Notes under the pieces: model-generated | The model's database searches: none | Seen by the model: only the letters and a program-made list of their open reading frames with translations | Told to the model about the DNA's origin: nothing | NCBI GenBank assembly: GCA_003344405.1 | Contig: NOWV01000121.1 | Span: forward strand, 62,001 to 126,000 | Direction: 5' to 3' | DNA: 64,000 bases | DNA from: Trichoplax sp. H2 | Taxonomy: Eukaryota | Position numbers and translations under genes: made by a program | In this document: in pieces, positions 3,700 to 61,250 of the stretch | Layout: each line of letters starts with the position of its first letter | Numbering within the stretch: position 1 is the stretch's first letter

Positions 3700-5300
3700 C
3701 CGTCCACAGTACGTGCCACTGTAAAGTACGGTACACTGTACTGTACTGTACTGTCTGAACTGTACATTGTACAGTACAAGGATTTCCATCCTGGTACCGG
3801 TATCACTAATCTAGACCGAGTTGGGTTCGGTTCGGTTCGGTTCAATACCTTTATGATCTACTGTATATGACTAAACCTCGATCAAATTGCATTTCATCTA
3901 ATGTTGGAGTTAGCAAAATGAGCAGTAGTACAGCAGGCACTGTGCTTATCCTTATTTTTGGGCATGATGATGGTGATAAGATACTACAATTCGAGCTAGC
4001 TAGCTAATAATTAAGTCATAGCAGTGATTCATCTCAGAAATTCAATCTATTCTCCATTCATATCATTCCTACAACATGATATCACAGAGGGAATTGGATA
4101 ATGGATATGTTGATGAGGCGATTTCATGCAGTAGTTACAATCACTGGTGTAGTACAGACGGTATGCCTTCTTCATGCCTGTACTGCAAGTGTCAGCATCT
4201 ATCAGCATGGAAATAAACGGCTTAAAGTGAAACTGCAACTCTCACAGTGTGCTGATGTACTGTCAGGGACTACTCAAAATCGTAATTAGCTTCCTGGTAG
4301 TATCGTATACGGTTTCATCTCTAACGTAGAGTAGAATGATGGAAAAAATGATCAACCTCCACATTATTTTGCACTGTGGTCGTTTCCTATCCCATCTCTT
4401 TTCTTTTGGAGTAGTCGCTGGTACTGTACAGTACTGACTTTTCGATTATGCCGTGGAAAAGAACGAGAGAATCACCGTTTTAGTATCCACATGGACTCTA
4501 CTCAATACTGTACTTGCAGCAAACCTATTGAACAAGGGGGATGTCATGATGGCTACAATAATACGGTAATAATATTCTATTCTATTACGCGTGATTTGCA
4601 TAGGTAGATGTATATGAACAGTACATGGATACTCTGCATTCATCAATATTATCATGTAGAATAATGTCCGTCTTCTTACTGCCACACAGGACTCTTTTCC
4701 TTGATATCGATCTCATCTTCATCCTCTGCATCCTCTACCCTACGTGTCCTTCTCAGTTTATACAGTTACAGTATCACACCCTCTACAGTGTACAGTGTAC
4801 AGTAGTATATCTTCTGATTATACAGTACTGTACTGTAGAGACCAGCGTTGTTGATAATGTTGAATGTTATGGCAAAATTTACTGTACATGTATTCAAAAT
4901 GCAGACCAAAAAATCGAGCTTTGTTGAAATCTCTATGACTGTAATGGACTGTATAGTGTCTAATACTCTAAACTCCTTTTGCATGTGGAGCATGTCCATT
5001 TCCCGTCCATTCTGCAGATCTTCTCACCTTCATAAAATCTCATCCTCTACTGTACACTGTACAGTACACTACGTGTCATTCTCTGTTCGCACCATACAAG
5101 AGTTAACAAACTATAGCACAGTATAGTTATACAGTATCACACATGGTACTGTATGAACAGTACAGTGTACAGTGTACAGTACTGTGCCTTCTAATTGTAC
5201 TGTGCTCTGTACTCTACAGTGTACGGTGTACAGTATGGAGTGCCTTTCTACGGTATGTTGTACTGTACTGTACTGCACTGTACCATGGGCTGCATTTAAA
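3700..5300. repeat. TACAG/CTGTA pentamer-rich patches in the TDRKH/MCCC2 divergent interval
   Basis: Runs such as gtacactgtactgtactgtactgt (~3731) and dense patches at ~4785-4835 and ~5045-5285; they generate spurious YCTVQYSTV ORFs. Confidence 0.8.
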
Positions 5301-5435
5301 ATACTGACCAAAGTATCATAGCTTGTTGAAATCTCTATGACTGTAATGGACTGTATGGTACTCGAAACTCCTTTTGCATCTAGAGCATGTCAGTTTCCGT
5401 CCCTCTGAGATCTTCTACTGATTGAAATCGTCAAC
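4896..5435 (+). repeat. Diverged ~140-bp direct repeat (4896-5043 and 5298-5435) upstream of MCCC2
   Basis: Identical 34-mer ttgttgaaatctctatgactgtaatggactgtat at 4921-4954 and 5323-5356, with alignable flanks (aaactccttttgcat...agcatgtc...agatcttct). Confidence 0.9.
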
Positions 5436-5469
5436 CAAACCCACTAGAATTGATTAGGCGATCAAGACC

Positions 5470-8400
5470 ATGGCTACCATGAACAGATTGCAGAGGTGTA
5501 CAATTCTTGGAAGATCTTTGATATCAAATAAAAAGTTACTCGCTCTTAGCTATCATGACGAGAGTAGATCCAGTGTTATTCCATCAACTGTGGTTACCAA
5601 TTCTAGTGAGTACAAGGTCAGTTTGCAAGGATATCGCTTTGTCTGATGAGAGCGAATTCATGGTTGTAGAGTATGTTGCCAATTATGCATTACTTCGGTT
5701 CAATGCAGATAGACTGCAGTAATTTGATCGACCACTCCCAAGAAAGAAGTGAAAGCTTCTAGCTTGCTTTACCACTTACAAGTTGCAATCTTATTCCTTA
5801 CTTTAATTCCTATTAGTAGCCTTTTAATCTGGACCAATAGTTTGCTTTCATCAAATTACTTATACACGTACGCGTATACTTTGAGTGGACAGTAGAATCA
5901 GGATAGCGGGATGCAGTATTTGACGTGTACGACGTGCACTATATCGTCCTCATCAAAGATTCTCTACTTTTGTAGAAGGTCTGTCGTTCTGTACAGCCAA
6001 AAACAAGACGAGCAATATACTACATTAACTGTAGTAAACTTAAAAATAATGCAGTAATTAACTTCTATTGCTTAATCTGCTATCTATCTTCAAATGAATC
6101 TGATATTAGGAAAACTACTCACAAATGAAATCTGTCGTTGATGACCTACGCCAAGTGGTGGACAATATTAAACTAGGTACAACAACTTTATACAACTGTT
6201 ATAAATTGTCGTTTTGATATTCTTATTAGAGTATAAATATACAGTAGGAGTGATCACAACTGAATATTGTATAGTCTATGCATACGTCATCACTTTAGCT
6301 AGTGATTTCTATTCTAAATCCGCTGCCTCTTTAAAAGTCCCTATTGATGCATGGACGCGTAGATGCGTATTCAACAGCTAGCATTATTGTTATAATTGAG
6401 AAGAATGAATGAATTCTCTTAAACATCTAGCTACATGCATAAGATGCAATAGCCTTTGTACCATCAACAAAATATATTAGCGGCTAATCATTTTAGCAGT
6501 GCAGTAACTGTTGGCTTGCGGCTGCAAACCTGCTCGTAAAAGCAGAAAAAAGTGCGACACCAAATTACTGTACGATCCATTACTATTGCGCGTTCACACA
6601 TCTGATAATACTATCGTTTAGAAACATTCAAAGTTTTACAAATATCCGTTGATATCGCCAAGCCCATAGTGCAAAAGTATGCATTTGCAATACCCTCTAA
6701 GTTTATGCGTACTACGGTAGGAATACTTAGAAATCTTTATAGATACGCACAAAAACTTGCTTGATTATACAGTATAGTCTATAGCTATTTTATAGGCACG
6801 AAAATCAATTTTATATTAGTATATATAGGCATCAATTTGTTATTTAATTTATCTTAAGGCGGAGGAGAAAAGGCTAGGCAACGCCATCTGTCGAAGAATA
6901 AGCTACTGCCGCGCGATCGCTTAGATAAACTTATTGATCCTGGGTAAATCTCAATCCTTCACCATGCTAATTTTACAAAATTTCTATAGACGCTTTACTC
7001 ATTAGCCATATTATACGTTGTTTTTCAATCGATGTTGGGATGGTATGATTTTCCATGAATAAGTTCGCCTTTCCTTGAGCTATCTCAACTCGCTGGACAT
7101 AAATGCTACGGTAAAGAAGAAGTTCCAGCTGCTGGCATCGTCACAGGAATCGGCCGTGTCTCTGGGTATTACATTTATCTTATGAGTCATTTTACGTTAA
7201 AATGAATACAATAAATAATAATCTATTAATTTCTATTTCAGTTTGGCTCAATAAGTATTTACTTTCTGAAATTTTGCGTTAAAACACCTAAATAATGTAT
7301 CATTACTAATATAGAGCCGAATGCGTAATTGTTGTCAACGATCCAACTGTCAAAGGAGGTACCTACTATCCATTAACAGTTAAGAAGCACCTTCGAGCTC
7401 AAGAAATTGCTCACCAAAATCAATTACCATGCATTTATTTGGGTAAATTTATGGATCGATCGCTATCGTATAACTGTCACTACATTACATTTTACTTCGC
7501 ACACCGAATGAAAGTTCGCTAACATAATGAGTTATGATTGTCTCAGGCTTTCTCTATTGCTCTATGGCCTGTATTTATTATTTTTCAATACCTTCATAGT
7601 TGATTCAGGTGGAGCAAATCTACCGCGCCAAGATGAAGTATTTCCTGATGTTGGCCATTTCGGAAGAATATTTTACAACCAAGCTAACATGTCTTCTGAT
7701 AGAATACCACAGGTACTAAAGACGGCTTGTATCTAGGTGGACCTCAAATGTTCCCTTAAAGTTTAACGCAAAGTACTGAGTTATTAGCGTGCAGTATCTA
7801 CTTTCAACAGTTTATGTCGATCAACTGATCGCACGCAACAATACTTTACAGTGTATTTAATTCGCATATCCTAATGTAACCTTATGAAACTTGACCATAG
7901 CTAAATATTTTTAAGCTTTACTATATCTCTGAACCTAAATCGATCTTAATTAATGAAATATACAGAAAAAAATTCAATACCGTACGTGATCTGAATACAT
8001 CCTATTCTTTACTAGATGAAATAATGACCTTGCAACTTGCTTACTGTTCGTTAAAGCTAGTGGGGATAATCTACGTACGCAATCTAAATGAGCAAACATC
8101 TCTTTATTAGTTGAATTATCTGTCATCAGGTCATGCAATCGATCATCGGTGTTAGGCCGGTGTACTATAGGTCCAATAGCTGCTAACACCTAGGTGATAC
8201 CTATTTCGTCTATCTATGAAACTGATTACTATTTTATATAGTTTGATACATCGTAGTGTCGTATTCTTACTTATCCCCTCTAATAATACTTGATCTAACA
8301 TTAAAATACATATCTGAAATTTGAAGGTCGCTGTAGTATTAGGTTCGTGTACTGCCGGTGGTGCTTATGTGCCTGCTATGTCTGACGAAGTAGTTATGGT

Positions 8401-10620
8401 TAAAAATCAAGGAACTATATTCCTGGGTGGACCTCCGTTGGTAATATTTTAGATAGCACCTTATCGATAAATTTTGTATATCATACTATCTTAAGATACA
8501 GTATAGCTAAATCTTTAATCACAATATTTAAATTGATACATTGTATAAATTCATTCATCTAGGTCAAAGCTGCCACTGGAGAAGTCGTTAGTGCTGAAGA
8601 ACTCGGTGGAGCTGAAGTTCACTGCAGGTGAACATGCTACTGTATAGTATCAACGTTAATTAAAGTAAACTCCAACCCGGCATCATTCACTCATATACTT
8701 GTGCCTTTTAATAGCGTTTCTGGAGTGAGTGACCACATGGCAATGGACGACGAGCATGCGTTACATATTGCTCGTCAAATTATCTCTAATTTAAATTATA
8801 AAAAGGAAGTTCAAGTAAGTATCAGACGTTAAATGTGATTTCATTTATATCAACTCGTTTTAGATTCTTATCATAGCTTATCATTTCTGTAATTGCTTGA
8901 ACATAATTCACTATGAGTTTTAAATCCATTAAGAGCGTTATGCAGCCCCCTGAAAAACCGGCCTATCCATCGGATGAAATTTACGGCATAGTAGGAACAA
9001 ATCTGAAGAAAAGTTACGATGTTAGACAGGTATTAAGTTATAATGTTTACAACACGCAGAACTATGTAAGAAATAATCCATTGCTGAAAATGCGAATATA
9101 TGATGTTAAACATATTGTACACCTTTCACAAATTATATATCTATGTTGTAATCCTTCAATTATGCCAATCATTTACAAACAATTGGATATTACATAAATT
9201 TAGGTTATTGCAAGAATAGTCGATGGTAGTAAATTTAACGAATTCAAAGCAAATTATGGCAAAACATTAGTTACAGGTTAGTTGATAAAATAAATAATAA
9301 TTTACAGATAAATTAATTTTTGATTCAGTTATGGTTATAGTCATCATCCCGCCTATAGAATAACTGAAACTGTTCTTCATATATCTTTAGGATTCGCACG
9401 TCTACATGGATACCCAGTTGGTATTATTGCCAATAATGGTATCCTATTTTCAGAATCGGCACTAAAGGTATTGACAAACACGAAATATCGATATCAGCAG
9501 TTTATGCATATCACATAATCTTCATTTTCATGGCATGATAGGCTACACATTTTATTGAATTATGCTGCCAGCGAGACATCCCTTTAATATTTCTTCAAAA
9601 TATTACTGGTAGGCTATCGCATTTATAATTATATCTTGCTTACTGTAGTTGAAACGGTGATAAATCAAAATCTAATCGCAGTATATACATACGTTTTGAA
9701 CTTCTATTCACTATAGTGAAATGTGTTGTAACAGTCGTCTGATTTTTGTTAATATTTAGGATTTATGGTAGGGAAAGAGTATGAAGCAGGTGGTATTGCA
9801 AAGAATGGTGCTAAAATGGTTACCGCTGTCGCTTGTGCCAAAGTACCAAAATTTACTGTTATTATTGGTGGTAGTTATGGAGCCGGTAATTACGGCATGT
9901 GTGGTAGAGCCTACAGGTAACCATACTCTACAAGTCTAGTTCTGAACATGATTTCATAAAAGCGAAAGATTAAACAATAGGACCTATAAGAGCCGAATAC
10001 GAAATGTAATACTGAATTTTAAAATAATACCATTTATGCGCTTCTTCAGTCCGAGGTTTTTATTCACATGGCCAAATACGAGAATATCGGTAATGGGAGG
10101 AGAACAAGCTGCAAACGTTCTGGCTACTGTCGCAGCGGATCAGAGAAAACGTGAAAATAAACAGGTAACAAAGCCAAATCCTTTAGCCTCGACATATTGT
10201 ATGTATCAAATATTTATTGCATTTACAGCATTAGAATATTCTAATACAAGCTTACTTTACGTCGATGTAGTGGACAGAAGAAGAAGATAAAGCTTTAAAA
10301 GAGCCAATTATTAAAAAGTATGAGAAAGAAGGACATCCATACTATTCATCTGCAAGGTACTTCTAACTAATATTACCGTTTAATAAGAATGATTTAGTGG
10401 ACTAACATATTGCATACTGTACATCGTGGAGCAAACAAATGTTCAACTATATGTTAGTTCAGGCCATAGTGTTATTATTTATTGAAAACATTCCTATTTC
10501 AGGTTATGGGACGATGGAGTTATCGATCCATCCGATACAAGAACTGTTTTAGGATTATGCCTAAGTTCAACTTACAACACGTCCCCGCAGAAAACTAAAT
10601 TTGGCGTATTTCGAATGTAA
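5470..10620 (+). CDS. MCCC2: Methylcrotonoyl-CoA carboxylase beta chain, mitochondrial
   Basis: 17 phase-consistent GT-AG exons: 5470-5616, 6110-6176, 6859-6943, 7064-7165, 7315-7442, 7600-7712, 8327-8440, 8563-8627, 8715-8814, 8934-9029, 9204-9276, 9391-9467, 9542-9608, 9760-9916, 10050-10164, 10271-10356, 10503-10620. Motifs [49 protein letters not shown] and C-terminal FGVFRM. Confidence 0.97.
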
Positions 10621-11483: not shown

Positions 11484-14400
11484 TTAAATTAAAGTCAGCG
11501 TATATTTATTCTTTTTACCGTGAGCGTTGTAGTTATTAATTCGAACCCACCTTACCATGAAAATGATCATTCCAACGACTACTATACATACAATTGCAAT
11601 TGCAAAACCTTTGTTTGGTTCTTGAGATGTTACAACAAAATCGTTAAGAAAAATTGCCTGAGCATAATTTGAAACTGATGAATAGCTGTATACATCATCA
11701 TAACTACGTATAGCAAACACATACGGTTTATTTAAAGCAATCTGCTCAAATTTAATTATTATTCTTTCGACACTGCCGGCTGATTTGGGTAAATCTAATC
11801 TAGCGCCATTGACTATAGATGATAAACTACTATTAATTAGACTTCCTTGATTAAAATCCGCGGTAAATGACGTGAAGTTATTGCTCATTCTCAATTCATA
11901 ACCTTGAGCTATATCAACAAAAACAAACTCATCATTTCTATGGGAAAATCTGTAAGCGTATATGTATTAACAAAATGTAAGAAATAAGTGGTATCTCAAT
12001 GCATAAAATTTGCTGTAGCAATATCAATCCAGCGCGATAGTTATTGTAAACTTACTACAATTCCTGTTGATCTACTAATAGATTTCGATTACAAAGCTGT
12101 CAATATCAAAATTCAGCCTACCTGTGCCGGTATCCATATCACTACCAGGCGCGGTCCATTGCAGCGCAATTGTAGCATTACGATAGTTAACTTGTAGGAC
12201 AGTAAGATCATGAATGCGACACGGAGGGTAGTTATCGATAGCTGTAAAAAAAATTTGAATACAACCAAATATATTATTTCCCCTCATAATGATGACTATT
12301 GATAATTTTATTGTTGAAGACCAACGTTGTATGTACCAAAATAACAATAGTAATGGATACATTATTTCATAAGTTCTAATTAAGACTTTAATTTTAGCGT
12401 TACAATATAGGAAATTAGCAAATTTGACCAGGTAAGATGGTATGTATGAAACAGTAAGGATAATAATATTAGAATGAATTAATGTATTATGACTAAATTA
12501 CTGTTACGAAATTTTTAGACCTAACTAAAATTTACCTACAAGAATCTTGCATTAGTGAAGATATTTCTGTAATTATTAAAATTAACAGCGCCCTGCGCCC
12601 TGTAGCTATGGTTACCACTTTATTACAATTTACTATGTAGTAGACCAATTTTAAGTTTTACAGCATAAAACTTAATCGGTCTTCTGTGTAGTCGTTGCCT
12701 CGTTGGCATCAATTTTTAAACGAGTATAATCAGTACTTATTTATAGCAATATTGCATACGGACATCAATAACTACAATATAATATTCCCGATATAAAGTG
12801 AAAGTAGATTTGCAACATTGTCCTCAAGCGTTACCTGCAGTATAGTTTATGACGTAAAAGCAATGGCCCGATCCCATCCTAGTAAAGCTTTTCAAGTATG
12901 TGATAGTTTTGTTGACTTTACCCACAACAGCAGAAGCAAAAGTAGTATCGCTGTTCGGCAATCCAACCATTTGGTGCGTATCTGTTTTTGTTAGATTAAC
13001 AGTTCCTGTTACAGTAACCAACATACTATAGCGTCCATTGTTGGAATATTCCGTAAAGTAGGCCGAATAAATACCATCATCTTTAGTAATATCTGCACCT
13101 GTGATAAATAAATTACAAGAGGTAAAATTAATCTTATAAACAAAAAAACAGTTACCCATGCAAAAATTCAACCGATCTTAACAAATGTCACAATAAAGTA
13201 TCACCGTAATGCGGTAATGAAAGTTATCACTATAGATGACTCTTAAAATCGAATAAGTTGCCCACAAAAACTGTACTTATATAATTAAATGCATAAAAAA
13301 TTTTAGAAAGCTGGACTTTCCAGAAGGTTTACGTTAATTTCCTTTGATAGAGTGCACTACCTGCTCCATCGTCTCGAAAGTTTATTCTACTTGGTACATT
13401 AGTAGATGGACGAGCTACTGTTCCAGAAACTTGGCATCCGACCACAGCTAAAAATCCTTTTCGCACTACTACCGACAAAACCGTCTAAATTTGAATTATA
13501 TGTCGCATTACTGAGGCTGCGTTACACATATCATTTAAACTAAATCTTGAAATATTAAAGAATAGACTTGATACACATTTACGTATACAGTAAATGCTAA
13601 CCGGTTGCGGAAATGATATCTGAGATCCATCCATCTTTAATTGCATGGTTAACGGATAATTATCTGCAATAAGAGATGCTCTAGATAGTAAAAAAACTGA
13701 AATTCTACGAGTAGGTGTTCCAACCGAATCAGGATTTGTAACCTCAAACTTCCAACTCCCAATCTAAAAGTATAAAAAAAGGTATATTATAATACTAAAC
13801 ACCAAGATGGTATTTAATGACAGACACGTATATTAGTTACCAATGGAAATTAAGTCTAAATAATAACGATATCCGGTATTACGGTACGTTATTGACACAT
13901 ATTATTGTCACTATATGAGCTTACTTCTGTCTGGTTAGGGCCTAAATAAATCCTGACACGCTGATACACATTATCCACTGTGTACTCAGGTGAGAAAGGA
14001 GTGTACTCTTTGCCGGTTGGGGATGTCAATATAACCCGTACAGACCTTCCTTGATAAATAACCAAAAATTCGGTATAATTCCCAACGTCATTATCGATAA
14101 TAACTTCCTGTTGCGAGCTAACACCACCACTTAAGAAGAATTCGTTACTATACAGCTAACGAAAAATACAAAAGTCGTCAGTGTTACACTTATTATCTTA
14201 TGTCAACTTGGTATAACATTCATTCCATGGCAAACGTATATTTAACCGCTGACGTCGTTAGTTCACTAACCTGAACGAGTCCATCCAGATTTGGTCCAAT
14301 CAACAACAGATCGATAGCCAACAGGGTATCAACTAAAGCCTGGGGACTCCCATAAATTGCATAGTAAGATTTACCTCGACTTATTGTAGCAACTGTTTCT

Positions 14401-16747
14401 AAGATCATAGGAGGAAGCTGACCAATAGAAATAGGTAAGACTGTAATTTTGTTGCTTCGAATTAATTGAAATGTCCGTTGATCAACTTGATTTCGATCTG
14501 CACTACCAGTTATAATAATTACCACACCACCGGATAGAGTAGAAGAGTTGGATGATTGGCGAAGCAGCTGCATAAATTTGCAACGGAAATTAATTTTTTA
14601 AAATTCTTTCTTAAAAAGTAATCAAGTATTACGATGCTATTGTGTTCTTTTAATGGCCCGAATGATCACACAGTACCGTATTAAATAGGGTGGGTAATGT
14701 ATAGTAACATTAATTAAGTAAATACTGTAACATTAAAACAGCTTGACGCAAATAGTCGTCGCTGCGATTCGGATTATAGAAAGAAACACAAACCTGCACT
14801 GAAGTCAGTAGACCAGCAGTCAAGTTGGCAGTGACAGTTGTTACAGCAGTCTCTGTCGGCAACAAATTAATTAATTGCTGCCGATCATTAGTATTTTTGA
14901 TTGATACTAATCTCGATTTTATATGAGCTGATGAGTCGATGGTAACAAGGCCTAAATCGTTGATGAAACATAAAATGAATTCAACACAAAGCTCGAGCCA
15001 AATCGATTGATAATCGAAAGTACCTGTAAGCATGAATCTTTAAATACTATACAATGTTATTTATACTGTACAGCAATCTAAAATTGTACCATTACATAAT
15101 AATTGTGTATAATTATCTGATCGAAAATACAACTGTATCCATCTCGTTATCACCATAAAATCTTAGTAAAATATCAGAAATAAAGTACTTGGATATACAT
15201 TATAGTATACATCTACCAAAACATCTTGACCATTTCACGTTTGACTACCTACCAATTGATTGTCCATCTCTGATGATGTATTGAAGGAAGAAAGCAATGG
15301 ATTGCCTAATTTGTGTTAAAGCTTCCCCTCTCATACTATTGGAAATATCTATAGCAATGACTATTTTTGGGTAAGCTTGCCGAACAACTGTAAATATTGG
15401 GGTGACGTCGGTTAAATTACGTGGTAAATTATTTCCTTTAGCGAAATCATTTGAGCTACTTATAACATCCCAAACGCTCCTGAAACGGCAGAAATTATTT
15501 TGTCGATTTATTGCTTGACGATTATGTAAAGTTTGTGGATTACTTTTGTTGTCATCACAAAATTCAGATATCTGCAAAGATAAAATTAGGGTTATATATG
15601 TACATTTACCGAAATTGTTAATGATAATATCGCACTACGGTTCTGATCATTATAGAACATGACTTAGAGAGCATCAATAACTCATGTAGAATACTATAGC
15701 GTATAACAGCATATACTTAATAAATTGAACTGCTCAGCACATTATCTTGATATGCAATACTAAGTTTAATTACACTATAGCCATCCTACTAAATTAGCTA
15801 TTTGTTACCCTGTTCAGATGAGGATCAAGCATGATTGAAGCCGTTGCCATGGAAGGGTCATTAGCTGAAAATTTGCATTGATCGCTATATGGCAATTTGC
15901 ATATTTGACGAGTAGCAATGTGACTGATGTTGCCTGTTAAAGACGCAGAGCAGCGAGTTGTTTGTAATTTTCCATAAGAGTCTATCAGATGAACCAAAAT
16001 GAAAGAAATTGTTTATTCACATACACAGGAATGTAAAGTTTGTCCCGATCGATATGTTCCTTGTGAAATAGTATTGTAGCACTTGTAAACAACAATTTTG
16101 TCGAATTTGTTGTAACAAGTACGTATTTGATAGACGTAGAACTTATATCCAACCCTATGTACAGTTGTACTGTATATACATCAAATCATTTTCTACTTAC
16201 CAAGGTAAACTAAATCTTGACTACGCATAGCGTATTCTTCAAAAACGCCATATCGATACTGAGCCCATAATTGCACCATTTCACGCCCAGCTAGAGAACG
16301 ATCTAACCATAATGGCGACATGGAAATTGAATGGCCAGCTACACTACAACCGCCAGTCCTCAAGACATAGGCAAATTCAATATCAAGCAATCGTCGATCA
16401 AAAGAATCAACTTGGATATCAGCATTCCAGTAATTATCTTGAACTGTAACCGATTGATCGGATGTCGTTGACCAGCTAGAAGGTAAAACGATGGTAATTT
16501 GGCGAAAATAAGCTCGGCGACGTGTGGCTGTATATAAATAGCCAGAAGCGACCGTCAATAATTGACGTATTTTATCGATTATGTTAGCATTGGATGTCTG
16601 TGTTATGCTCGGCGAAAGAGCCACTGTAATATCTTCGTAACCGTTATTGTTTATTGTAACAGCATGAACATAGGATAGCGTACTAATATAAGTATTGGAC
16701 GATAGTAAAATGATTGCCACAACCACGAATAAAATCTTATAATCCAT
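11484..16747 (-). CDS. Calcium-activated chloride channel regulator (CLCA)-like protein, ~939 aa: signal peptide, CLCA_N, vWA, FnIII-like, C-terminal TM
   Basis: 11 phase-consistent exons: 16747-16201, 15981-15809, 15571-15253, 14951-14794, 14567-14271, 14155-13925, 13763-13602, 13484-13361, 13098-12835, 12241-12122, 11908-11484. Motifs NNNGYEDITVAL, YLYTATRRRAYFRQITIVLPSSW, RYGVFEEY, vWA MIDAS DISNS, DGAGADITKDDGIYSAYFT, PPCRIHDL...WTAPG. Confidence 0.92.
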
Positions 16748-39965: not shown

Positions 39966-40163
39966 AGCGACGGACATCGGGGTGGCTGGAACTTTCGTAA
40001 TCCAAAGTTAAACATTATAAAACGTAGCCATTATTATATTGACAAAGTTTCATAGTAACGATTACGAAAGTAATGCAGAAGGAGAGCAGCCCATATTCGT
40101 TACAGGAACTGTCCTTGTTGATGATGATCGTCATAGCCTTGTAGTACAGTAAAGTAGAAATAG

Positions 40164-46219: not shown

Positions 46220-46364
46220 CACTATGCTCTCTACGTTGCAGCGTTTGCTTTATACGGATTTGCGCTTTTGAACAGGTAAAAGCCGGAGCTAGCAACACTT
46301 ATTTCATTTCAATTTCGCAGAAAATCAGTAAAAGATTAACTACTTTTAGGTGGACAGCATAGCA

Positions 46365-46470
46365 GAGTACTCTTGCAGTCTTTGTACTCTACTGTACAGA
46401 CTGTACACTGTGTATAGTACAGTACAGTACAAGTCATTACACTGTACTGTACAGTACAGTACTGTATAAT
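46365..46470. repeat. TACAG/CTGTA patch immediately upstream of TMEM161
   Basis: actgtacagactgtacactgtgtatagtacagtacagtac...actgtactgtacagtacagtactgta. Confidence 0.8.
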
Positions 46471-48021
46471 AGGCTACAAGAAATTCCATCTCTCAAGAGT
46501 ATCCTAACCAAAAGGAGTTTTTGGCTACATTGTTGTAACAAAAATTTTTAAAGCATGGCGATAGCACTCGGCAATGTGTAAAAATAGAACTATGGCATGC
46601 ACATTGTACAGTAGGCTACTATCAGTAGCCCCAGTCAAAATACATCTAGTGATTTAATGCAAAATGCAGAGGGGTAATGCGCGGCAGAGATTTACAGTAA
46701 GCGTGTCGCTCCACATGACTCAATGTTGTGTCCGTGTAAAAAGGAATAAAGCCTAATCTATGATAAATGCCTAGCTGTCAAATTACAGCACTAAACTGGG
46801 TAAATTTGCATACTGTAATACATACAGCACAGTGTAGAAGACAAATGACCTTTTTCAATAAGATAATAATAAAAAAATTACATACCCTAACTGTTTACAT
46901 CATAGTGAATGAATGATATTATCCCGCTATGCAGCAAGTATACCGAGCCCCATTGATTTAGACCTTTAGGTCTTTATAACCTAACATGCACGAGTATATA
47001 TATTCGCATATTTAGCCTTGCTTAAAAAACATGCGATATGTACACCTGCTTGCACTAGATGCAATAGTCGAAATCTACAAGTCAAAGAGTAACGATTGAT
47101 AAGACTACAGCTATAACCAGGATCTCGTAGCATTTATAGACAATGCATATACTGCATATATAATGGTAGCTGTTTGCGTAAAAGTTTCGAATAAATATTA
47201 CGAAACAGTAGTCACTTGTAGCACCCATAACAGTAAATTAAATTAAAACACGTGTAAAGTAAATCTCAGTAATGATAATCCAGGCTCTAAGCTTTTGATA
47301 TGCAATACTCTACTGTTATAGTGAGGTTAGTGACCATGTCCAGATGTTCTAAATCACTGTAGGCCACAAACGATTTTAATTTCTTAATATATAAAATCGC
47401 AACTTGAATTTGCCACATACCCAACTTATCTTTGAAAGCAACAAATTTCAATAGATAAATTTATTATAACCGCACAAAGCAAATACATTTCGATAAAAAT
47501 CTATAAACGGAGATAAATTCAAAGTGAAATCTCAGCCCATAAACTCATGATGTACTCCAAAAGTCTTTAATCTTAAATAAACCGTTCCTAATGAATCTTC
47601 ACCTTACAGAATAATAAATTTTATTTGCTATGTTGCACATACAGTGAAGTATATTATTAATAAAGTTACAGTTATGACTACGTGTATAATATTACTCAAG
47701 AATATAGTAGTACTTAGAAAATAAATCATAAAAATCTTTTTACCAAGTAGAGTAAAAATATACGTTCAAAATTCTGTATAAGGTCTTTTGCCTCCTTCTT
47801 GATTGCAATAGCCCGAACTATTCAATTGGTACTGCTGTATTCTACTTCGTAGCAAATCATGATGCATGAATAATCATGACAACTTCTTAAATTGGACTAT
47901 TACTGCAAAATGCTGATATGAAGTACTGTACTTAGTATGCTGGACATTTACATATAATGATACTAAAATAAAAGTAGTACCTTGAAAAGATTCGCATTTA
48001 TAACCTTCCATAATTTAATTT

Positions 48022-50058: not shown

Positions 50059-50069
50059 CTATTCACAGT

Positions 50070-50825
50070 TTATACAGTAGTACAGTGATGAAAGCTACAA
50101 TTAAATTATTATTTTATCGCGTTGGAAATTAGAAACCATCTTTCCTGCCAATTAATTCGACAGTTGCACAAACTGGTACAGTACAGTACCAGTTCTCTTC
50201 TAACAGAAACGTGTACTGTACTGTACACAAGTGCAGTTACGTCACGGTCCCTTTTGACTACGTCAAAAGGAAAACGCTGCAAAGCATCGGCTCCTCCTAG
50301 ATCTGAGAACGGTTCGGTTCGGATCGTTACGATCTATGCCTCCACCACTACAATACTGTACATTACAGCACCATGGACCAGAGAGTCACCCACCATTTGT
50401 GTGTGTGGACTGGACATTCCTCGGACTGTCGGACATTGTCCAGTACAAAACTGTACACTGTACAATTTCGCTTTGGACTGTAGACGATTTTGTCTTTTAC
50501 TGTACTGTACACTGTACAGTAGACTGATATTTTAGAATAAGCATTACGAGTAGCGTACAGTAATTGTATCAACTTGTATAGAAGCTCAACTCTCTAGCTA
50601 CATAATGGTATACGGTATAAAGTATAGTAATTTTACGTTAGTTTCAGTAATATTTTTTCCCTTTTTCGCAGTCTGAAAGAAAATAAATACATCGTACTGT
50701 AGACAGAGCCATTGGACCAAGCCACTTCTGAATTCCTTTTTCCCATTAAACCTCTTATTACAGTACTTTACGCGTCCTTTTTACATTGTACTGTACTGTA
50801 TTGTACTGTACAAAAGTACAACAGC
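50070..50825. repeat. TACAG/CTGTA patches in the glycosyltransferase A/GTF2A2 divergent interval
   Basis: Pentamer runs at ~50072, 50175-50228, 50440-50522 and 50785-50812. Confidence 0.75.
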
Positions 50826-50956
50826 GACTGCGCACTGCTGGACATTTATCCTTTTTCTTTCTTTTTGTTGTTACCATTTGGCTTCGCGATTTTTAAACGT
50901 TAAGCAGATAAACCTTGAATTTTTTCAAGCCAAGACTAAAGAAATTGGTAAAAAGA

Positions 50957-53832
50957 ATGAGTTATCAGCTTTACAGAAATACGACGTTAGGTCAGAGTTT
51001 ACAGGAAACGTTAGAGGAACTGATACAGGTCAGTACGATGGAGATCGTGTTTGCTTTTCGCATCGCATCTTGAAGCTCAGGGCATGTTATTATTGCATAT
51101 CGTTATTGCATGTGGCTATCTTGAATTGAGTTCTTGGTCAAGGTTCGAAAATCTTGACTTAAATATATAGTATGATTTATGAATATGATCTAGTAGTTTT
51201 CAGCTAAATCGAAATCTGCATGCACGCTTGCCTGTGATAGCAACCTCTGCTATGCGCAGGGATACAACTGTGCATTGCCCAAAAAAAGAAGCGTGACATT
51301 GTCAAAGACTACTATACGTTTACGGTAGAAGTAGACGCTAATTGCGCTATCTGATCATGCTGTGGTACCTGAAAATGAGAATGATACAGCACGAGGCAAT
51401 CATGGATCCCTTTTAGTAGCACGTGATAATGTACCAGATTTTGTTTGTCGATAATACTGATATTGTTATGCTGTACTGTATAAAAATCATCTTTAAGGTG
51501 GAACAACTAGCATAAATAGCGACGAGATAAATAAGTTACGAGCTCTGTCGGTATATCCAATAAGGTGGAACAACTAGCATAAATAGCGACGAGATAAATA
51601 AGTTACGAGCTCTATCTGTATATCCAATAGGATCTCGAGCTCTTACAACGTGTTCGATTATACTTACTATACAGTGTACAGTATATTACTGTAGTAATCA
51701 AAAGGCGAGATTAGAAATATGTAATGTACAGTATNNNNNNNNNNNNNNNNNNNNATAGCGACGAGATAAATAAGTTACGAGCTCTATCGGTATATCCAAT
51801 AAGGAGGAACAACTAGCATAAATAGCGACGAGATAAATAAGTTACGAGCTCTGTCGGTATATCCAATAAGGTGGAACAACCAACATAAATAGCGACGAGA
51901 TAAATAAGTTACGAGCTCTATCTGTATATCCAATAGGATCTCGAGCTCTTACAACGTGTTCGATTATACTTACTATACAGTGTACAGTANNNNNNNNNNN
52001 NNNNNNNNNTTAGTAGCACGTGATAATGTACCAGATTTTGTTTATCGATAATACTGATATTGTTATACTGTACTGTACTGTATAAAAATCATCGTTAAGG
52101 TGGAATAACTAGCATAAATAGCGACGAGATAAATAAGTTACGAGCTCTATCGGTATATCCAATAAGGAGGAACAACTAGCATAAATAGCGACGAGATAAA
52201 TAAGTTACGAGCTCTATCGGTATATCCAATAAGGAGGAACAACTAGCATAAATAGCGACGAGATAAATAAGTTACGAGCTCTATCGGTATATCCAATAAG
52301 GAGGAACAACTAGCATAAATAGCGACGAGATAAATAAGTTACGAGCTCTGTCGGTATATCCAATAAGGTGGAACAACCAACATAAATAGCGACGAGATAA
52401 ATAAGTTACGAGCTCTATCTGTATATCCAATAGGATCTCGAGCTCTTACAACGTGTTCGATTATACTTACTATACAGTGTACAGTACAGTATATTACTGT
52501 AGTAATCGAAAGGCGAGATTAGAAATATGTAATGTACAGTATATGCTCTCAATTCATTCTATTTGATCTACAGCGGCCAAGAGTGGACGTGAATATGCAA
52601 CATTGATTGTTATTATCTACTGCGTAAAAGGAACTTTACTGCACACCACTGTTATACACCGCTATGTAGTAGGAAAATAGTAATGAAAAATCATTTCAGA
52701 ATAATAAATCTTAAAAAGTATTCCGCGCCAGTGTCTTTTAGCCGCCACTTGTACAAATACGATGCTGTGATAAATTGCTTTGCACGAATTATCGTATATC
52801 AATTGATGAATGGTAGCAAATCATACTCGGCGATCTAAAATTGGCCAATATACAATATATACTGTACGCGTATATAATATAAATTCACTGAGGTACATGC
52901 TATTCATATAGTAGATTTTATTATGATAAAAAACTACGAAATCATGATTGCACAATTTATAAGTGAGCGTTCTAGTTGATAATATGTTAATATATATAAT
53001 AATGGTTTCTTATTTCTACACTTGCTACCTGCTAGTTCACGACAATTTCCATTTTGAGACATACTGCCGACTACAACTAAAAGTCACAGAGATGGCTACA
53101 CGTATTCGTTACTGTAAATGAAAATAATTAAGAACGACAAAATTCTATTTTAATCTCTAGACGCAGCAAATTGATCCTGATTTGGCTTTGATCGTTCTAC
53201 TACAATTTGATAAAACTATTAATTCCGCATTAGCAAATCGGTTACGCACTAGAATGTCATTTAAGGTAAGTTTTATATCAGTTAGGAACGCTTGAAAGTG
53301 CTCAACTACTTCACTTTTTTATCGACCAAATTGCTGTGCATGTTTTACTGAAGCAAAATATCTCTTATCCACTACTTTATAAAGTATACTGTAGTCGTTA
53401 TACTGTACTAATGAATAATAGTATAGAGTTTTTCTAACTGCAAGAACGATGTATTGATGTTGTGGAAAGAATCGTATGAGTCAAGAAGAATCCTATAAGT
53501 GTCTTTACAATTTATGCAGTATTAGATATGTACAACACAGTCCACTACGAAATATTTTAATATTATCTTAATCCGCATTTCTAACCCATTGTAAGTACAG
53601 TATTAGCGACGATGAGCAAAAAACTTACAAGGAAATCTAAGCGTTTTCTGCTTCATGTTTTATTTAGGGACATTTACGAACATACAGGTTTTGTGATAGT
53701 GTTTGGACTTTAATTGTTGAAAATGCGGAATTCCGTGAGACCGGAAGCGATACACACTCGTTTAAGGTTGACAAATTGAAAGTAGTTGCTTGTGACGGTA
53801 AAACAAGTGGCCTAGAATGTAAGGAACTTTAA
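50957..53832 (+). CDS. GTF2A2: Transcription initiation factor IIA gamma subunit
   Basis: Three phase-0 exons 50957-51028, 53161-53265, 53668-53832: [83 protein letters not shown]...[13 protein letters not shown]. Not present in the ORF track. Confidence 0.96.
51495..52431 (+). repeat. 67-bp tandem minisatellite (VNTR) in GTF2A2 intron 1, in three blocks separated by 20-N gaps (51735-51754, 51990-52009)
   Basis: Unit aagg(t/a)ggaacaactagcataaatagcgacgagataaataagttacgagctct(a/g)tcggtatatccaat starts at 51495 and 51562; 51801 and 51868 (plus a partial unit from 51755); and 52097, 52164, 52231, 52298, 52365. Confidence 0.95.
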
Positions 53833-56790: not shown

Positions 56791-59589
56791 TTACGGATCT
56801 CGACCTATACACTTATCATAAACACCAGGAAACTTTACGCACACTATCTGGAAATGCTTTCTATTCGGATATAACGATCTTGTCTTGGGACACATACACT
56901 TGACAGACATGTATGGTGTCCAATTGCTTGGATTACAGTACATACCGAAAAGATCTCGTTCACCCGTATTCAAGGTGATCTTATTTAGATCTACTAAACG
57001 AGGAGATTTTGACCATGCAGGATTTGGCTAAAAAGTTGTGCATAGAATGTTATTGACCATAAATCAGCCTTGTTAATGCCATATATATACAATACTTCAT
57101 TTACTGAATTCGTTCATAAGACAGCATAATAATCTAAAAAAGCTTTTATACACGAATAGCTGACCTCAATCCTACGTCTTTTCTTTCCATCTCCAGTATG
57201 CCCAAGCCCTATTGCACCAATATGCCATATTCGTCCAAGAGTCGGAACAATCACATTGTAGCGACCTACCCAAAGCCAACCAAGGGCCTCAGACCAATCG
57301 TTGACTTTGATTGTTAAGAAACGAGACGTTTTAATTTCTCTCCAAACAGAAGCGTTGAATGCGTACGCCATGCCGGGAAAGAAGAGCATATATCTTCAAA
57401 GAAACATAAACAAAGAAATTATGTACATACATAAGCGAGCAGCAAATAGATTATTTTATGTATATGTAGATAAAGTAACATGCAGAATTTTTGGTAATAG
57501 TATTGCTATGTATTACTTTCAAAAGCCTAATACTACTTAAAGTTTATGCTTTCGAAATTACACACCGAATCACCACCGTATCTGGGTGAGGATTTACAAG
57601 ATTTTCTCCTGACCATCCCCCAAGTCCAACAGCAACAGTCTTATAACGCGAATTTTTGATCTGTAACATGTACCATATCATCTTGATGGCGTCTTTCGAA
57701 AGCTCGATATCGTCCTCTAAAAAGAGAACATCTTCCTCATATGCAGATCCCAAACCAAAGATATCTACGAGTAAAAGCACCAGAGTACTTGAGAATATTC
57801 CTCAAACGATTCAAATTGATCAAGTGATGTCATTTTTTATTATAGGTAGAAACGCTAGTGCTAGCCAATACACGATATATTAGCTTTCAATTGTTGAATA
57901 CTTGTAGACATATCTATAAGTATCTCAAGTTATACTTTAACAATTCATACCTTATCGTATTATCATACAAAATAATGGATACTCGTATAATTTTAATTAA
58001 GCACAGGACTGTACGTTGTAACTTTCAATTAGCGCAGGGTAGAGGCACAATGCTATTAATATTTACATCAAAATATTATGTTACTCTGACTACCTGTTAT
58101 CTAGACATTATTTCAGCAGAAAAGGTAAAACTGCATAGGCAGTATCGTGTATTGTACTGTACTAGAGATATAATCGTGTTTTGCCTAAATAGCTACAAGT
58201 GAAGAAGTTTGAAATGTATGACATCTACTAATAAGTTAATAGCATTGCATCTAAATGGCTATCTAAAAGTAATATAACGACAATGAAATTCACGAGTAAA
58301 AGTAATTATGAGTTAATTTTATGCCACATCGCTTGTATCCACTTTGAAAGTATCAAGCATATCATGTAACAAACATCCACGTACAATACTGTAGGTTTAA
58401 AGATTTATCCAGCTTTTGGTATACTTCTGGCGTGCATGACAACACGATCATAATTACTTCATGCTCATGGATTCTATAATTGAACATTTTAGATGATGGA
58501 TGACAGCGTGCGCATAGAACTGCATTTACAATTTACAAGTACAACTTGACATAGATACAAGCATATTTTACACTTGCGATACATTACAATATTTATCTAC
58601 AGTAGACAAATATACTGGTTCAGCTCTAGGTTGAATGCTGTATCGATACAGCAGGTAGATACGTAATATAGTGGCGTCGATTGCTAAATTAAATGATGAC
58701 ACAGATCCTGTAGATGATAGCAAATAGTGAAGGAACTTAATCTCATCATTAAGAAATTTGATACTATTGATACAACACACACACAATTAACCATTATTGA
58801 TAACCTCAAGCTAATCTTAAGAATTTAAGTATTGCAAAAAATAGATTGCCGCACCAATAGAATGTACTTGATTGACTGTTTCATCGATCCAATTTCTTCT
58901 TTAAGTTAATGTACAGTATAGTATATTGCTGTGTCTATATACGATTATATATGCAAATCTGCATGGCACTAAATTTTGATCGAAAATACCATGCGTCAAT
59001 ATGATAAGCTACTTTACTACAATTGTGTAAAATTGTGCAGAAATGTAAATAGGTTTTAGCGATCAAGATTTACACCATCGTTCCATTACAATGATACAGT
59101 ACCTTTATCCTCGAAAGTCTGCTTTACAACATTATACCACTGTTGTTTATATTCTTTTGCATTTCTACGTTTACTCTGTGTAATTATAGTTTTAGTCTTG
59201 CAAAATTTTACACCTGCAATAAGTTGGTTGGTTTTTTTGATATCTTCATCTTTGACGACTGGTGATTTCTGACATGCGAATAAACATGTGCTATTAGGAT
59301 GTAGACCATCAATATCTCGTAGCGAACGCAATAATCGTGACATATATTCGTGCCGATATGAACAGAAAATCACCATAGGAATCTTTATACTGGTAAAATT
59401 ACTTTCGAAGGTTAATGGAGGAGCCGTTGCCAGTGTAACTTCATTATTAGTAAAGGTAATTCCATTAAGATCAGTATCTTTACTTTTCGATATATCAATG
59501 TCTTTATGATTATAACTAGAATTTCTAATTTTTATAATAAACATGAATGCGGTGATTACAATAATAACTAAGAAGCAACGATGCCTCAT
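56791..59589 (-). CDS. Type II membrane glycosyltransferase, GT13-like, paralog B, ~383 aa
   Basis: Exons 59589-59103, 57764-57566, 57393-57165, 57027-56791. The last three exon sizes (199/229/237) are identical to paralog A. PMVIFCSYRHEYMSRLLRSL, LFLEDDI, FFPGMAY, IVPTLGRIWHIG. Confidence 0.8.
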
Positions 59590-60184
59590 TTTTGAATTGC
59601 ACGACCGTTATTGCAGCAAAGGAATGAAATCGTTCAACAGTAAAATTGGAAATGTAGCTAAAATTGAATCAATAAGACGGTGTTACAAAGTTGATAGCGT
59701 AGTTACAGTATGTATCAAGCACAGCGGTACAATAAGGAGGCAAACTTCAAGATGGAAGGCAAAATCGATCGTGATTTTTTTAGTTTACATCGATATTTTA
59801 CATCCTAAGCAGAACCGCATAATACGAGTACGGTGAGTTGCACGATGGCGTTTGTGATGCTCCAGTTGTCTTGCACTATCGAATACTGTCAATCCCAACC
59901 AATTGGTGTCGAAGGTTTCGGCCTTGTACCCAGTTCTATACGAATAAATGTGCTTTGCTTATAGCATGGTATAATTCAGATATTACGATCTATAATTCAT
60001 TTATTTATTAATTAATCAATGAATAAACGCAGATTTAAATCGCTGGGTTAAGAGTGTTTCAAAATCGTGACCTGGATCAGCTCCTACACGATGAATCATT
60101 ATGCAGTCAACAAAGCAACGTTGCAGGTGTGATGTGTACTCAGGTGTCCGTACCCGACAGAGACTGTTACGGTAACAGTGTTCC

Positions 60185-61250
60185 CAGCGACTGTAGTGTA
60201 CAGTGTACAGTACAAGGGACTTCTAACTGTACTGTACTGTACACTGTACCGTACAGTAATCCAATTTCCATGAGTCATGTGACGTACAGTACAGTTAACT
60301 GTAGCCTTTGCGTCTACAGTACTGTACACAGTACAGTACAGTGTATAGTACTGTACAGTACAATACTGTAGTGCGTGTGCATGTGACTGTACTGTACTGT
60401 ACACTGTACAGTACAGTATACAGTATAAAAAGAAGAAAGGCACGATAGTATGTACCTTACTAAAATGAAAGAGAGAAAGGCGGGAAACGACTTGTGGTGC
60501 AAAATAATGGGGTGGATTTACCATTTTCAGGTCATCCTACCTGTATACAGTACTATAGTAAGTACCCAGTACTTAACCGTTAGCAGCTAATTTAATATGT
60601 AGCGCTTAGACGCCTTACGTTAACGATCGTGCCTGGTGCAGTACAGTACTGCACTGCAGAAAGGATGTTGGTACTGTACACTGTACAGTCTACTGTACTG
60701 TACAGAGTACACGATGCACTACTGCACTACTGCACTGTAGAATACGGAACGGAACGGAATCACATTAATCACATTAGTGATTAATTCCGTATTCCATACC
60801 GTTCCGTTGAAAATGCAAAACTTTACAGTACTGTACTGTATGCTACAGTATTAATTTGGACAGGCTCGCAAAATATTTTTTCTGTATACTGTACACTGTA
60901 CTGTACAGGATTGTACAGTACACAGTACAGAACTGACATCTACGGTACTGTACACTGTACAGTACTAAACACAACTGCACTGTAGAATACGGAACGGAAT
61001 CACATGGATTCGTGATTCCGTTCCGTTCCGTATTCCATACCGTTCCGTCGAAAATACAAAATTTTACAGTACTGTACTGCATGCTACAGTATTAACTTGG
61101 ATAGGCTCGCAAAATATTTTCTCGGCATACTGTATACACTACTATACAGTACTGTACAGAACTGACATCTACGCTACTGTACAGTACTAAACACTACGGA
61201 CTGTAACTCACTGTACTGTACAGTACAGTACTGTACAGTGTACAGTGTAA
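60185..61250. repeat. TACAG/CTGTA satellite plus duplicated ~240-bp hairpin-containing unit in the glycosyltransferase B/PPIP5K divergent interval
   Basis: Dense pentamer runs. Unit actgcactgtagaatacggaacggaa...ggctcgcaaaatatttt...cagaactgacatctacg...agtactaaacac at ~60729-60972 and ~60974-61193. Confidence 0.9.

Follow-up and report, generated by a model that had tools for sequence, protein, structure and literature searches.

Short two-strand ACAGT runs cluster at gene 5′ ends in 64 kb of the Trichoplax sp. H2 genome

Dense clusters of short runs of the pentamer ACAGT, on both strands, accompany gene 5′ ends in a 64,000-nt stretch of Trichoplax sp. H2 DNA (analysed as a whole and referred to here as the window), and these clusters are, with near certainty, the ACAGT pentanucleotide microsatellite of Trichoplax. 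Placozoan genes are regulated mostly from proximal promoters, within a genome of roughly 100 Mb, and if a simple repeat marked thousands of these promoters, it would give an early-branching animal a promoter grammar that is unusually easy to read. The phenomenon as such is already known: ACAGT was put into print in 2010 and resurfaced in 2026 via contact-map modelling, in two reports that have so far stayed unconnected. What the window adds is anatomical detail rather than a new phenomenon, in the form of short two-strand runs, palindromic junctions, and a presence in all divergent and no convergent spacers.

Results

The 194-aa CLCA ORF of the window matches a Trichoplax sp. H2 protein at 100% identity, and the 939-aa CLCA protein of this host maps exon by exon to 11487–16747(−) by tblastn, with 10 of 10 exon matches in order on the window at 70–100% identity. 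Gene strands were taken from Pfam matches on ORFs, from intron direction in RNA contigs and from the tblastn mapping of CLCA. Pfam places KH and Tudor, CLCA, FAA_hydrolase, WD40 and Tmemb_161AB domains on the minus strand and Carboxyl_trans, LRR, TFIIA_gamma_N and PPIP5K2_N (62356–62640) domains on the plus strand; the FOP_dimer (+) and MGAT2 (−) matches are weak. In RNA contigs, introns of the SMU1-like (−) gene read CT..AC, up to 38508, and a contig of the LRMDA-like (+) gene starts at 40060 and is spliced from 40279 to 41437 (GT..AG).

Counted on both strands, TACAG/CTGTA occurs 531 times in the window vs 159.2 ± 13.2 expected from 100 dinucleotide-preserving shuffles, none of which reached this number (maximum 192). 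The underlying unit is the pentamer ACAGT, i.e. GTAC at a 5-bp period with A or T as spacer; among the 109 cases of 5-bp GTAC spacing the spacer base is A in 55, T in 51, C in 2 and G in 1. Perfect ACAGT runs of ≥13 bp number 39, measure 13–25 bp (2–5 units) and occur in both orientations, and they qualify as microsatellites as defined by Wang et al. 2010 (perfect ACAGT tandem repeats >12 bp). A few of them are intronic. Going from unit to unit, the strand changes in 13 of 40 steps and is kept in 26, with one step of another kind; the flips, about one step in three, generate perfect palindromes of 10–14 bp. Relative to gene direction the units have no strand polarity (ACAGT 138 vs ACTGT 153). 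Words of 8 and 10 bases are enriched 31–430 fold in the clusters. When folded as DNA hairpins, five of six array pieces score better than dinucleotide shuffles (z −2.2 to −4.1), while the piece at 46385–46470 folds no better than its shuffles (z = −1.0). Scanning the window for Rfam families and tRNAs returned nothing, which leaves the arrays without a tie to small-RNA genes.

The term "satellite", used in the initial annotation, does not fit these arrays. A classical satellite is a long, homogeneous head-to-tail array, whereas the longest perfect run here is 25 bp, and the short runs lack defined ends and are scattered in unique sequence and among local tandem duplications, the latter present in five of six clusters. 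Tandem Repeats Finder (TRF) rows inside the clusters span ≤154 bp with 65–93% matches, and similarity between clusters is restricted to the pentamer runs (about 80% over 45–100 bp). With runs of ≤25 bp, an A/T spacer, strand flips and no polarity, the arrays look like clusters of sites rather than a slippage array, and this is the reading that we prefer.

In 500-bp bins, clusters of TACAG/CTGTA lie at 3.5–5.5k, 31.5–33k, 38.5–40k, 46–46.5k, 50–51k and 60–61.5k; bins in 31.5–33k reach 44 and 27 matches over a background of 0–3 per bin. The five divergent spacers hold 262 matches in 7,414 bp, and the four convergent spacers, similar in size and higher in AT content, hold 11 in 4,791 bp, which is at chance level (11.9 expected). 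Arrays are present in 5/5 divergent vs 0/4 convergent spacers (Fisher exact p = 1/126), a position result drawn from 12 gene starts and 9 informative spacers. A stricter eight-base unit (GTAC[AT]GTA or its complement) occurs 339 times in the window, with 283 copies inside the six 5′ spacers, which together account for 14% of its length, and 36 of the 39 perfect runs lie ≤1 kb upstream of one of the 12 mapped ATGs. The nearest unit is 14–616 bp from these ATGs and within 350 bp for 11 of the 12; for GT-B it is 616 bp away, with none within 500 bp. Gene bodies contain 202 matches in 38,434 bp (5.3/kb), roughly double what shuffled sequence would give.

These counts bear out most of what the initial annotation had said about position. 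The dense arrays that it placed in five head-to-head intervals and upstream of TMEM161 are there, at 35.3/kb and 14.6/kb, as is the scarcity in convergent intervals (2.3/kb, at chance level), and the proposed link of ACAGT arrays with gene 5′ ends holds in the window. Its description of the signal upstream of CLCA as weak is correct, since the 1 kb concerned has 8 matches with just two eight-base units, and the stretch upstream of a putative orphan membrane gene (25–28.6k), described there as poor in arrays, lies in an interval that is at chance (26 matches in the 10,850 bp of 17.75–28.6k vs 27.0 expected). The suggested likeness to CpG islands stands by analogy alone: GC content in the spacers is 37–42%, an increase of 4–9 points, but the CpG observed/expected ratio is 0.54–0.96 vs 0.96 elsewhere, so that CpG is not enriched and the spacers do not qualify as CpG islands.

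Each cluster covers 0.2–1.6 kb of 5′ intergenic DNA. That of the divergent TDRKH(−)/MCCC2(+) spacer, at 3706–5355 (41 matches and 28 units in 3451–5470), is composed of sub-clusters at 3706–3777, 4421–4513 and 4761–5355 with a middle poor in arrays, and carries a tandem duplication (4889–5024/5291–5416, 82% identity). The densest cluster (31915–32870) fills the spacer between FAH(−) and FOPNL(+), whose ATGs were read from the sequence at 31836(−) and 32908(+); it has 76 matches and 98 units in 1,071 bp and includes a ~330-bp composite unit present three times. Between the SMU1-like(−) and LRMDA-like(+) genes, the cluster at 38693–40151 (56 matches, 58 units) contains a 20-N assembly gap at 39788–39807. 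A smaller cluster upstream of TMEM161(−) extends over 45957–46613, with its main part at 46390–46613 and 15 units in 45941–47451; this 5′ spacer (22 matches in 1,511 bp) adjoins the 3′ end of GT-A near 47452. The GT-A(−)/GTF2A2(+) spacer has a cluster at 50075–50812 (21 units in 914 bp), with the GTF2A2 ATG at 50958 and its TFIIA_gamma_N match, and the GT-B(−)/PPIP5K(+) spacer one at 60205–61245 (68 matches, 63 units), with a tandem duplication at 60680–60954/60932–61183 (80% identity). A two-unit mini-cluster lies at 17099–17114, 350 bp upstream of the CLCA ATG (16747, −). Finally, intron 1 of the LRMDA-like gene holds a lone three-unit run (41070–41084) with a one-unit length polymorphism, 5 bp being missing in one DNA and one RNA run.

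Other repeats accompany the ACAGT runs. The GT-B/PPIP5K cluster contains a palindromic ACGGA/TCCGT element, resembling transposon terminal inverted repeats, at 60740–60810, with a second copy at 60985–61050. All seven matches to ACGGnACGG in the window fall on these two copies (60744–61048), which fold as DNA hairpins (z = −6.0 and −4.7) and show no target-site duplication in their flanks when the sequence is read by eye; ACGG repeats are therefore found in one of six clusters vs six of six for ACAGT. The element agrees with the "repeating ACGG" that the Chimaera paper (PMC12817080) equates with the transposon motif of Kim et al. A (GGTTC)n tract with a conserved box at 3809–3866(+) recurs at 38851–38909 (88% identity over 59 bp) and is the only non-pentamer piece common to different clusters. 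A piece related to this box lies near 50308–50340. More generally, CGG-containing pentamer elements accompany the ACAGT runs in some spacers.

Sequencing runs show that the array words are high-copy across the genome. DNA-run depth is ~80–90 in single-copy bins vs 989–10,155 at four of the five clusters covered; it is 526 and 331 in the GT-A/GTF2A2 spacer, and in the TMEM161 spacer the peak is confined to the bin 46074–46740. As many as 4,228 contigs of the DNA run were placed on 20 kb of the window, and these short-read contigs break at arrays. In both RNA runs most of the placed contigs (143 of 202 and 112 of 134) match only in part, mostly at arrays, and the array words are therefore present in transcripts of many other loci. 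The RNA evidence consists of assembled contigs, which do not show true 5′ ends and frequently break at repeats; with this in mind, the GT-A contig extends to 50178, where the first ACAGT run is reached, the contig start at 40060 likewise falls at a cluster edge, and RNA depth is 0 in 46741–47407 in both runs, a weak hint on the end of the TMEM161 transcript.

A 19-base array word matched more than 112 metagenome contigs and 12 prokaryote-genome contigs. We rejected these contigs as placozoan loci, as their GC content, make-up and habitat spread indicate other organisms, and because of this origin they were left out of the promoter-association test. One of them (L018), with arrays at both ends, is the only contig with a Trichoplax-like GC content (0.336); it was rejected as a source of the arrays, being a Polinton-like virus from a marine family of wide distribution, with none of 124 relatives bearing a placozoan name.

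Discussion

Since the window belongs to Trichoplax sp. H2 and ACAGT was reported by Wang et al. in 2010, our finding is a rediscovery, and the "candidate code" put forward in the initial annotation is not new, the upstream bias of ACAGT having been published in that year. Wang, Zhang, Meyer and Bao (2010, Biol Direct 5:18; PMC2871265) described ACAGT as the dominant microsatellite of T. adhaerens, where pentanucleotides make up 61.8% (7,233) of microsatellites and ACAGT 78% of those; 54% of ACAGT loci lie ≤1 kb and 85% ≤5 kb upstream of genes, figures that the relevant passages give without a matched intergenic control. The repeat was enriched near ribosomal-protein and kinase genes, was the most frequent pentamer repeat in ESTs, and was proposed as a possible transcription factor binding site (PMC2871265). 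Unit, genus, upstream position and the factor-site proposal are common to that study and the window, which represents haplotype H2; the strand flips and palindromes, the 0.2–1.6-kb blocks of short runs, the way divergent spacers differ from convergent ones and the CGG pentamers that accompany the runs go beyond its passages on ACAGT.

The identical repeat was recovered independently from 3D contact data when the Chimaera model, applied to T. adhaerens Micro-C maps (NAR 2026; PMC12817080), picked repeating ACAGT as informative; its passage on ACAGT is a single sentence that neither offers a mechanism nor connects the motif with the 2010 study. Kim et al. (2025, Nature; PMC12221973) described a "GP1" class of about 3,000 housekeeping promoters with high expression, which have a common motif and assemble into hubs; Trichoplax sp. 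H2 is one of the four placozoan species concerned. The authors reported Mutator insertions in these promoters and considered, for the motif, domestication as a binding site as well as preferential insertion into active promoters. The GP1 motif and ACAGT are both sequence marks at promoters, those of GP1 being highly expressed housekeeping ones, but the Chimaera authors identify the loop-associated motif of Kim et al. with the transposon-derived ACGG and not with ACAGT (PMC12817080), and in the window it is ACAGT that occurs in every cluster. Elsewhere, an ACAGT-type repeat is absent from the text of the Amphimedon promoter paper and unmentioned in the relevant parts of Najle et al. 2023, the sole match in Eitel et al. 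2018 is to a primer, and the matches listed in a full-text search with a nine-base array word were all unrelated primer and microRNA papers.

A role of ACAGT as a mark of housekeeping or bidirectional promoters is consistent with this published work, even if an upstream bias is partly to be expected in a compact genome. Factor binding, nucleosome exclusion and a causal part in initiation would be candidate mechanisms of such a mark. With about even confidence, we regard the clusters as a promoter-proximal element that is specific to the lineage, belongs to constitutively active genes and acts as a homotypic cluster of factor sites. In the window, this reading draws on the position of the clusters, on the RNA contigs that extend to their edges and on the high copy number of the array words. 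Such an element would be free of orientation, its sites being GTAC-centred palindromes that a putative dimeric DNA-binding or architectural factor could bind, perhaps assisted by the hairpin or cruciform potential of array DNA. A 5′ spacer kept open in this way would insulate the genes beside it, and the arrays may be maintained and turned over through replication slippage and unequal exchange. We know of no binding factor for ACAGT and of no convincing match to known factor sites. A stronger version, which we consider distinctly unlikely, would make ACAGT/ACTGT clusters, and not the ACGG motif, the primary determinant of constitutive placozoan promoters, through a palindrome lattice that recruits a dimeric architectural factor or extrudes cruciforms, combined with two-strand CAGT initiators. 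Cruciform extrusion would then be driven by negative supercoiling between divergent genes, the putative factor would be placozoan-specific, and the arrays would be the microsatellite equivalent of CpG islands; if true, a single repeat would govern openness and bidirectional initiation together with insulation or the formation of hubs.

Alternatively, the arrays could mark promoters without having any function for them. Slippage- and hairpin-prone (GTACW)n would be seeded and spread preferentially in the nucleosome-poor, negatively supercoiled DNA of divergent promoters and be purged from exons and tight 3′ spacers. The length polymorphism at 41070, the local tandem duplications, the breaking of short-read contigs at arrays, the lack of polarity, the hairpin potential and the few intronic runs all agree with this, as do mixed-strand arrays in many unrelated metagenome contigs, some far longer than those of the window (873 units/9.2 kb), from which it follows that this type of sequence can arise without a placozoan factor. 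However, pentamer slippage usually becomes efficient only at lengths above those of the interrupted 13–25-bp runs seen here. Retention of GTAC with a spacer base restricted to A or T (106 of 109 cases), and convergent spacers that are array-free despite similar size and higher AT content, are also hard to reconcile with a mutational by-product, as are the recovery of ACAGT by a network trained solely on contact maps (PMC12817080) and the functional-class enrichment of nearby genes (PMC2871265). On balance, we consider a by-product possible though unlikely.

Two further readings deserve mention. CAGT is the core of the metazoan initiator, so each unit might supply a start site and a two-strand array might work as a dispersed bidirectional core promoter with many starts. 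The equal frequency of both orientations, the position of units 14–350 bp from 11 of 12 ATGs, RNA contigs whose ends (40060; 50178) touch the first runs or lie within them, the array words in many transcripts from other loci and the top rank of ACAGT among EST pentamer repeats (PMC2871265) would fit, but contig ends cannot mark 5′ ends, clusters of up to 1.6 kb are far larger than a core promoter, and the unit fits the initiator consensus in its four-base core only, making such a platform quite improbable. The arrays might also be remnants or sub-terminal repeats of Mutator-type MITEs that insert preferentially into active promoters. MITEs of this type are defined by terminal inverted repeats and a 9–11-bp target-site duplication, and the ACGGA/TCCGT palindromes of one cluster and the (GGTTC)n box common to different spacers recall such elements, but no such duplication is visible beside the palindromes, and similarity between clusters is limited to pentamer runs apart from one 59-bp piece. 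Mutator insertions in GP1 promoters (PMC12221973) and the viral contig with (TACAG)n at both ends point the same way; against this, transposons make up just 0.13% of the T. adhaerens genome and MITEs are rare (PMC2871265), the virus belongs to a marine family without a placozoan link, and ACGG repeats are confined to a single cluster. A transposon origin is, in our view, very improbable.

The promoter-proximal site cluster that we favour would have relatives among known systems. Simple repeats keep promoters nucleosome-poor in Drosophila, with (GA)n and GAGA factor, and in yeast, with poly(dA:dT), via a repeat-binding factor or the stiffness of the DNA; the palindromic, two-strand make-up of the ACAGT clusters has, to our knowledge, no counterpart in either. 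Vertebrate CpG islands likewise mark, through their composition, housekeeping promoters that are broad and often bidirectional, and GC content is raised in the ACAGT spacers too, but these spacers have no CpG enrichment, and their signal is a specific repeat unit rather than composition.

Gene map and distribution of the arrays

Gene strands were checked using Pfam matches on single ORFs, intron direction in RNA contigs and mapping of the CLCA (calcium-activated chloride channel regulator) protein. Pfam places KH and Tudor (687-992 and 3-326), CLCA, FAA_hydrolase, WD40 (36-37k) and Tmemb_161AB (N-terminal profile positions toward higher coordinates) on the minus strand, and Carboxyl_trans (9952-10290), LRR (40164), TFIIA_gamma_N (50912-51070) and PPIP5K2_N on the plus strand; FOP_dimer (plus) and MGAT2 (minus) give weak matches only. 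RNA contigs have minus-sense introns (CT..AC) in the SMU1-like gene and the glycosyltransferase-like gene GT-A, and plus-sense introns (GT..AG) in the LRMDA-like gene. Mapping of the complete Trichoplax sp. H2 CLCA protein puts its gene on the minus strand at 11487-16747, and a 194-aa ORF matches [quoted passage not shown] at 100% identity. The names FOPNL, SMU1, LRMDA, GT-A and GT-B of the initial annotation are backed at the domain level only. GT-A and the second glycosyltransferase-like gene, GT-B, are same-strand paralogues (77% nucleotide identity over 192 bp, 49020-49209 and 57578-57767), and the closest named relative of GT-A is a T. adhaerens MGAT2-domain protein (59% identity).

TACAG or its complement occurs 531 times in the window, against 159 ± 13 expected from 100 dinucleotide-preserving shuffles, none of which reached 531. 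In 500-bp bins the excess is confined to six places (3.5-5.5k, 31.5-33k, 38.5-40k, 46-46.5k, 50-51k and 60-61.5k), with 0-3 matches per bin elsewhere, which bears out the clustering originally proposed. The five divergent spacers (TDRKH/MCCC2, FAH/FOPNL, SMU1/LRMDA, GT-A/GTF2A2 and GT-B/PPIP5K) hold 262 of these five-base matches in 7,414 bp (35/kb) and the TMEM161 5' spacer reaches 14.6/kb, whereas the four convergent spacers are at chance level (11 in 4,791 bp, 2.3/kb). Arrays are present in 5/5 divergent vs. 0/4 convergent spacers (p = 1/126). Density is 8/kb upstream of CLCA, 5.3/kb in gene bodies and 2.4/kb in the low-GC block at 17.75-28.6k, so that the weak signal annotated upstream of CLCA and the scarce ones at 25-28.6k within that block and in convergent intervals also hold. 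Of 339 eight-base units (GTAC[AT]GTA or complement), 283 lie within the six 5' spacers, and the distance from the nearest unit to the downstream ATG is 14-616 bp for 12 mapped ATGs, with GT-B as the outlier (616 bp). Unit orientation has no polarity toward either gene (138 vs. 153). The spacers are 4-9 points higher in GC than the rest of the window and are not enriched in CpG. The array-free block itself (17751-28600; GC 0.27-0.30) carries minus-strand ORFs, including a Glu/Lys-rich low-complexity ORF at 21345-21650, and could contain cell-type-specific genes of the kind termed GP3 by Kim et al.

Anatomy of the clusters

The repeated unit is the pentamer ACAGT, best written as GTAC every 5 bp: the clusters contain 109 such spacings, in which the base between GTACs is A (55), T (51), C (2) or G (1), together with 27 of a 7-bp variant. 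Within clusters, eight-base words (e.g. one unit extended by the next GTA) are enriched 31-100 fold and ten-base array words up to about 430 fold. "Satellite", the term first applied, does not fit, as there is no long satellite and the 39 perfect ACAGT runs measure only 13-25 bp. Among 40 consecutive unit-to-unit steps, 26 keep the strand, 13 flip and one is of another kind; owing to the flips, runs join as 10-14 bp perfect palindromes. Of the six array pieces folded, five give better single-stranded DNA hairpins than their dinucleotide shuffles (z -2.2 to -4.1); the sixth does not (z = -1.0). ACGGA/TCCGT palindromes at 60740-60810 and 60985-61050 also fold into strong hairpins (z = -6.0 and -4.7).

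Runs are separated by unique sequence and, in five of six clusters, by local tandem duplications of 80-330 bp. Different clusters resemble each other only in the pentamer runs, except for a 59-bp (GGTTC)n box common to 3809-3866 and 38851-38909. The FAH/FOPNL spacer has four to five copies of a ~25-bp box (aggctcacaatgcaggactacagtac and variants; 32130-32160, 32215-32250, 32490-32525 and 32700-32745), which belongs to its local tandem unit and is absent from other clusters. In the SMU1/LRMDA cluster, short (GTCA)n runs (39080-39100 and 39177-39200) lie inside an 81-bp local duplication, and a 162-bp duplication of 99.4% identity (39626-39787 and 39928-40089) flanks a 20-N gap (39788-39807) and spans the start region of the LRMDA-like RNA contig; this could reflect the assembly of two haplotypes, as an artefact, or a real tandem promoter duplication. 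The region 0.5 kb downstream from the start of GTF2A2 holds a 67-bp tandem satellite within a ~306-bp higher-order repeat (51413-52542; copies 94-100% identical), which is broken by two 20-N gaps (51735-51754 and 51990-52009) and has a short ACTGT run in each higher-order unit.

Copy number and transcripts

One read run behaves like DNA, with a depth of about 80-90 over genes and introns and contigs broken at arrays. Summed depth is 989-10,155 in bins at four of the five clusters covered, against only 526 and 331 in those of the GT-A/GTF2A2 spacer, and 4,228 contigs match the 20 kb examined; array words are therefore high-copy genome-wide. Two runs with spliced joints behave like RNA. In these, 143/202 and 112/134 contigs match only partially, mainly at arrays, which places array words in the transcripts of many other loci. 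One RNA contig, of the LRMDA-like gene, starts at 40060 and another, of GT-A, extends to 50178, both at cluster edges, a contig end being no proof of a 5' end.

Function and origin

We consider it about an even bet that the clusters are a functional promoter-proximal element. Orientation-free, GTAC-centred palindromes would provide sites for a putative dimeric or architectural factor, possibly assisted by cruciform-prone array DNA, and the 5' spacer would be held open and insulating; factor binding, openness and insulation are what we infer here, from clusters whose position, anatomy, copy number and occurrence in transcripts are established. A less probable reading, although the strongest of the others, is that a slippage- and hairpin-prone unit accumulates as a neutral by-product in open promoter DNA. 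This is supported by the length polymorphism at 41070, where two read runs show a 5-bp (one-unit) deletion in an intronic array run, which is a slippage signature, by the local duplications in clusters, and by the same mixed-strand arrays in unrelated metagenome contigs. A multi-initiator platform based on the CAGT core seems unlikely, and a transposon origin more unlikely still: the clusters lack common non-pentamer sequence and defined ends, and ACGG repeats occur in just one of six.

Placozoans are not alone in having this type of sequence. Metagenome contigs of varied habitats (L109, L059, L076, L037 and others) contain long mixed-strand ACAGT/ACTGT satellites that reach 873 units in 9.2 kb, and a 19-base array word is found on three contigs (L117, L118, L124) of one Rubritalea MAG, possibly through host contamination. 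The marine metagenome contig L018 (1-10447) is a Polinton-like virus or element; it has ORFs for an integrase, a packaging ATPase, a protease and a capsid-like protein. Its long pure (TACAG)n arrays at both ends, in the same orientation, suggest that the genome carries this microsatellite and is either circular or terminally redundant; the 124 relatives of its capsid-like protein, all in marine metagenomes, include none with an organism name.

Comparison with known placozoan promoters

ACAGT arrays at Trichoplax promoters are already known. According to Wang, Zhang, Meyer and Bao 2010 (PMC2871265), pentanucleotides make up 61.8% (7,233) of T. adhaerens microsatellites, and ACAGT alone 78% of these; of the ACAGT loci, 54% are no more than 1 kb upstream of a gene and 85% no more than 5 kb, and the nearby genes show enrichment in translation and protein modification. 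Since that report describes ACAGT upstream of genes, our starting observation is a rediscovery; its interpretation is supported in part, as the link with gene 5' ends stands, and its functional idea matches the possible transcription factor binding site proposed in 2010. Our search on Trichoplax and ACAGT found no paper treating the repeat beyond those cited here. The window adds description rather than new evidence of function: the two-strand palindromic make-up, the divergent vs. convergent contrast, and an ACAGT repeat more constant than ACGG across promoters here. According to Kim et al. 2025 (PMC12221973), about 3,000 housekeeping and highly expressed GP1 genes have ATAC and H3K4me3 peaks and gather in promoter hubs, and the GP1 promoter motif occurs in Mutator TIRs and also in Trichoplax sp. 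H2, Hoilungia and Cladtertia.
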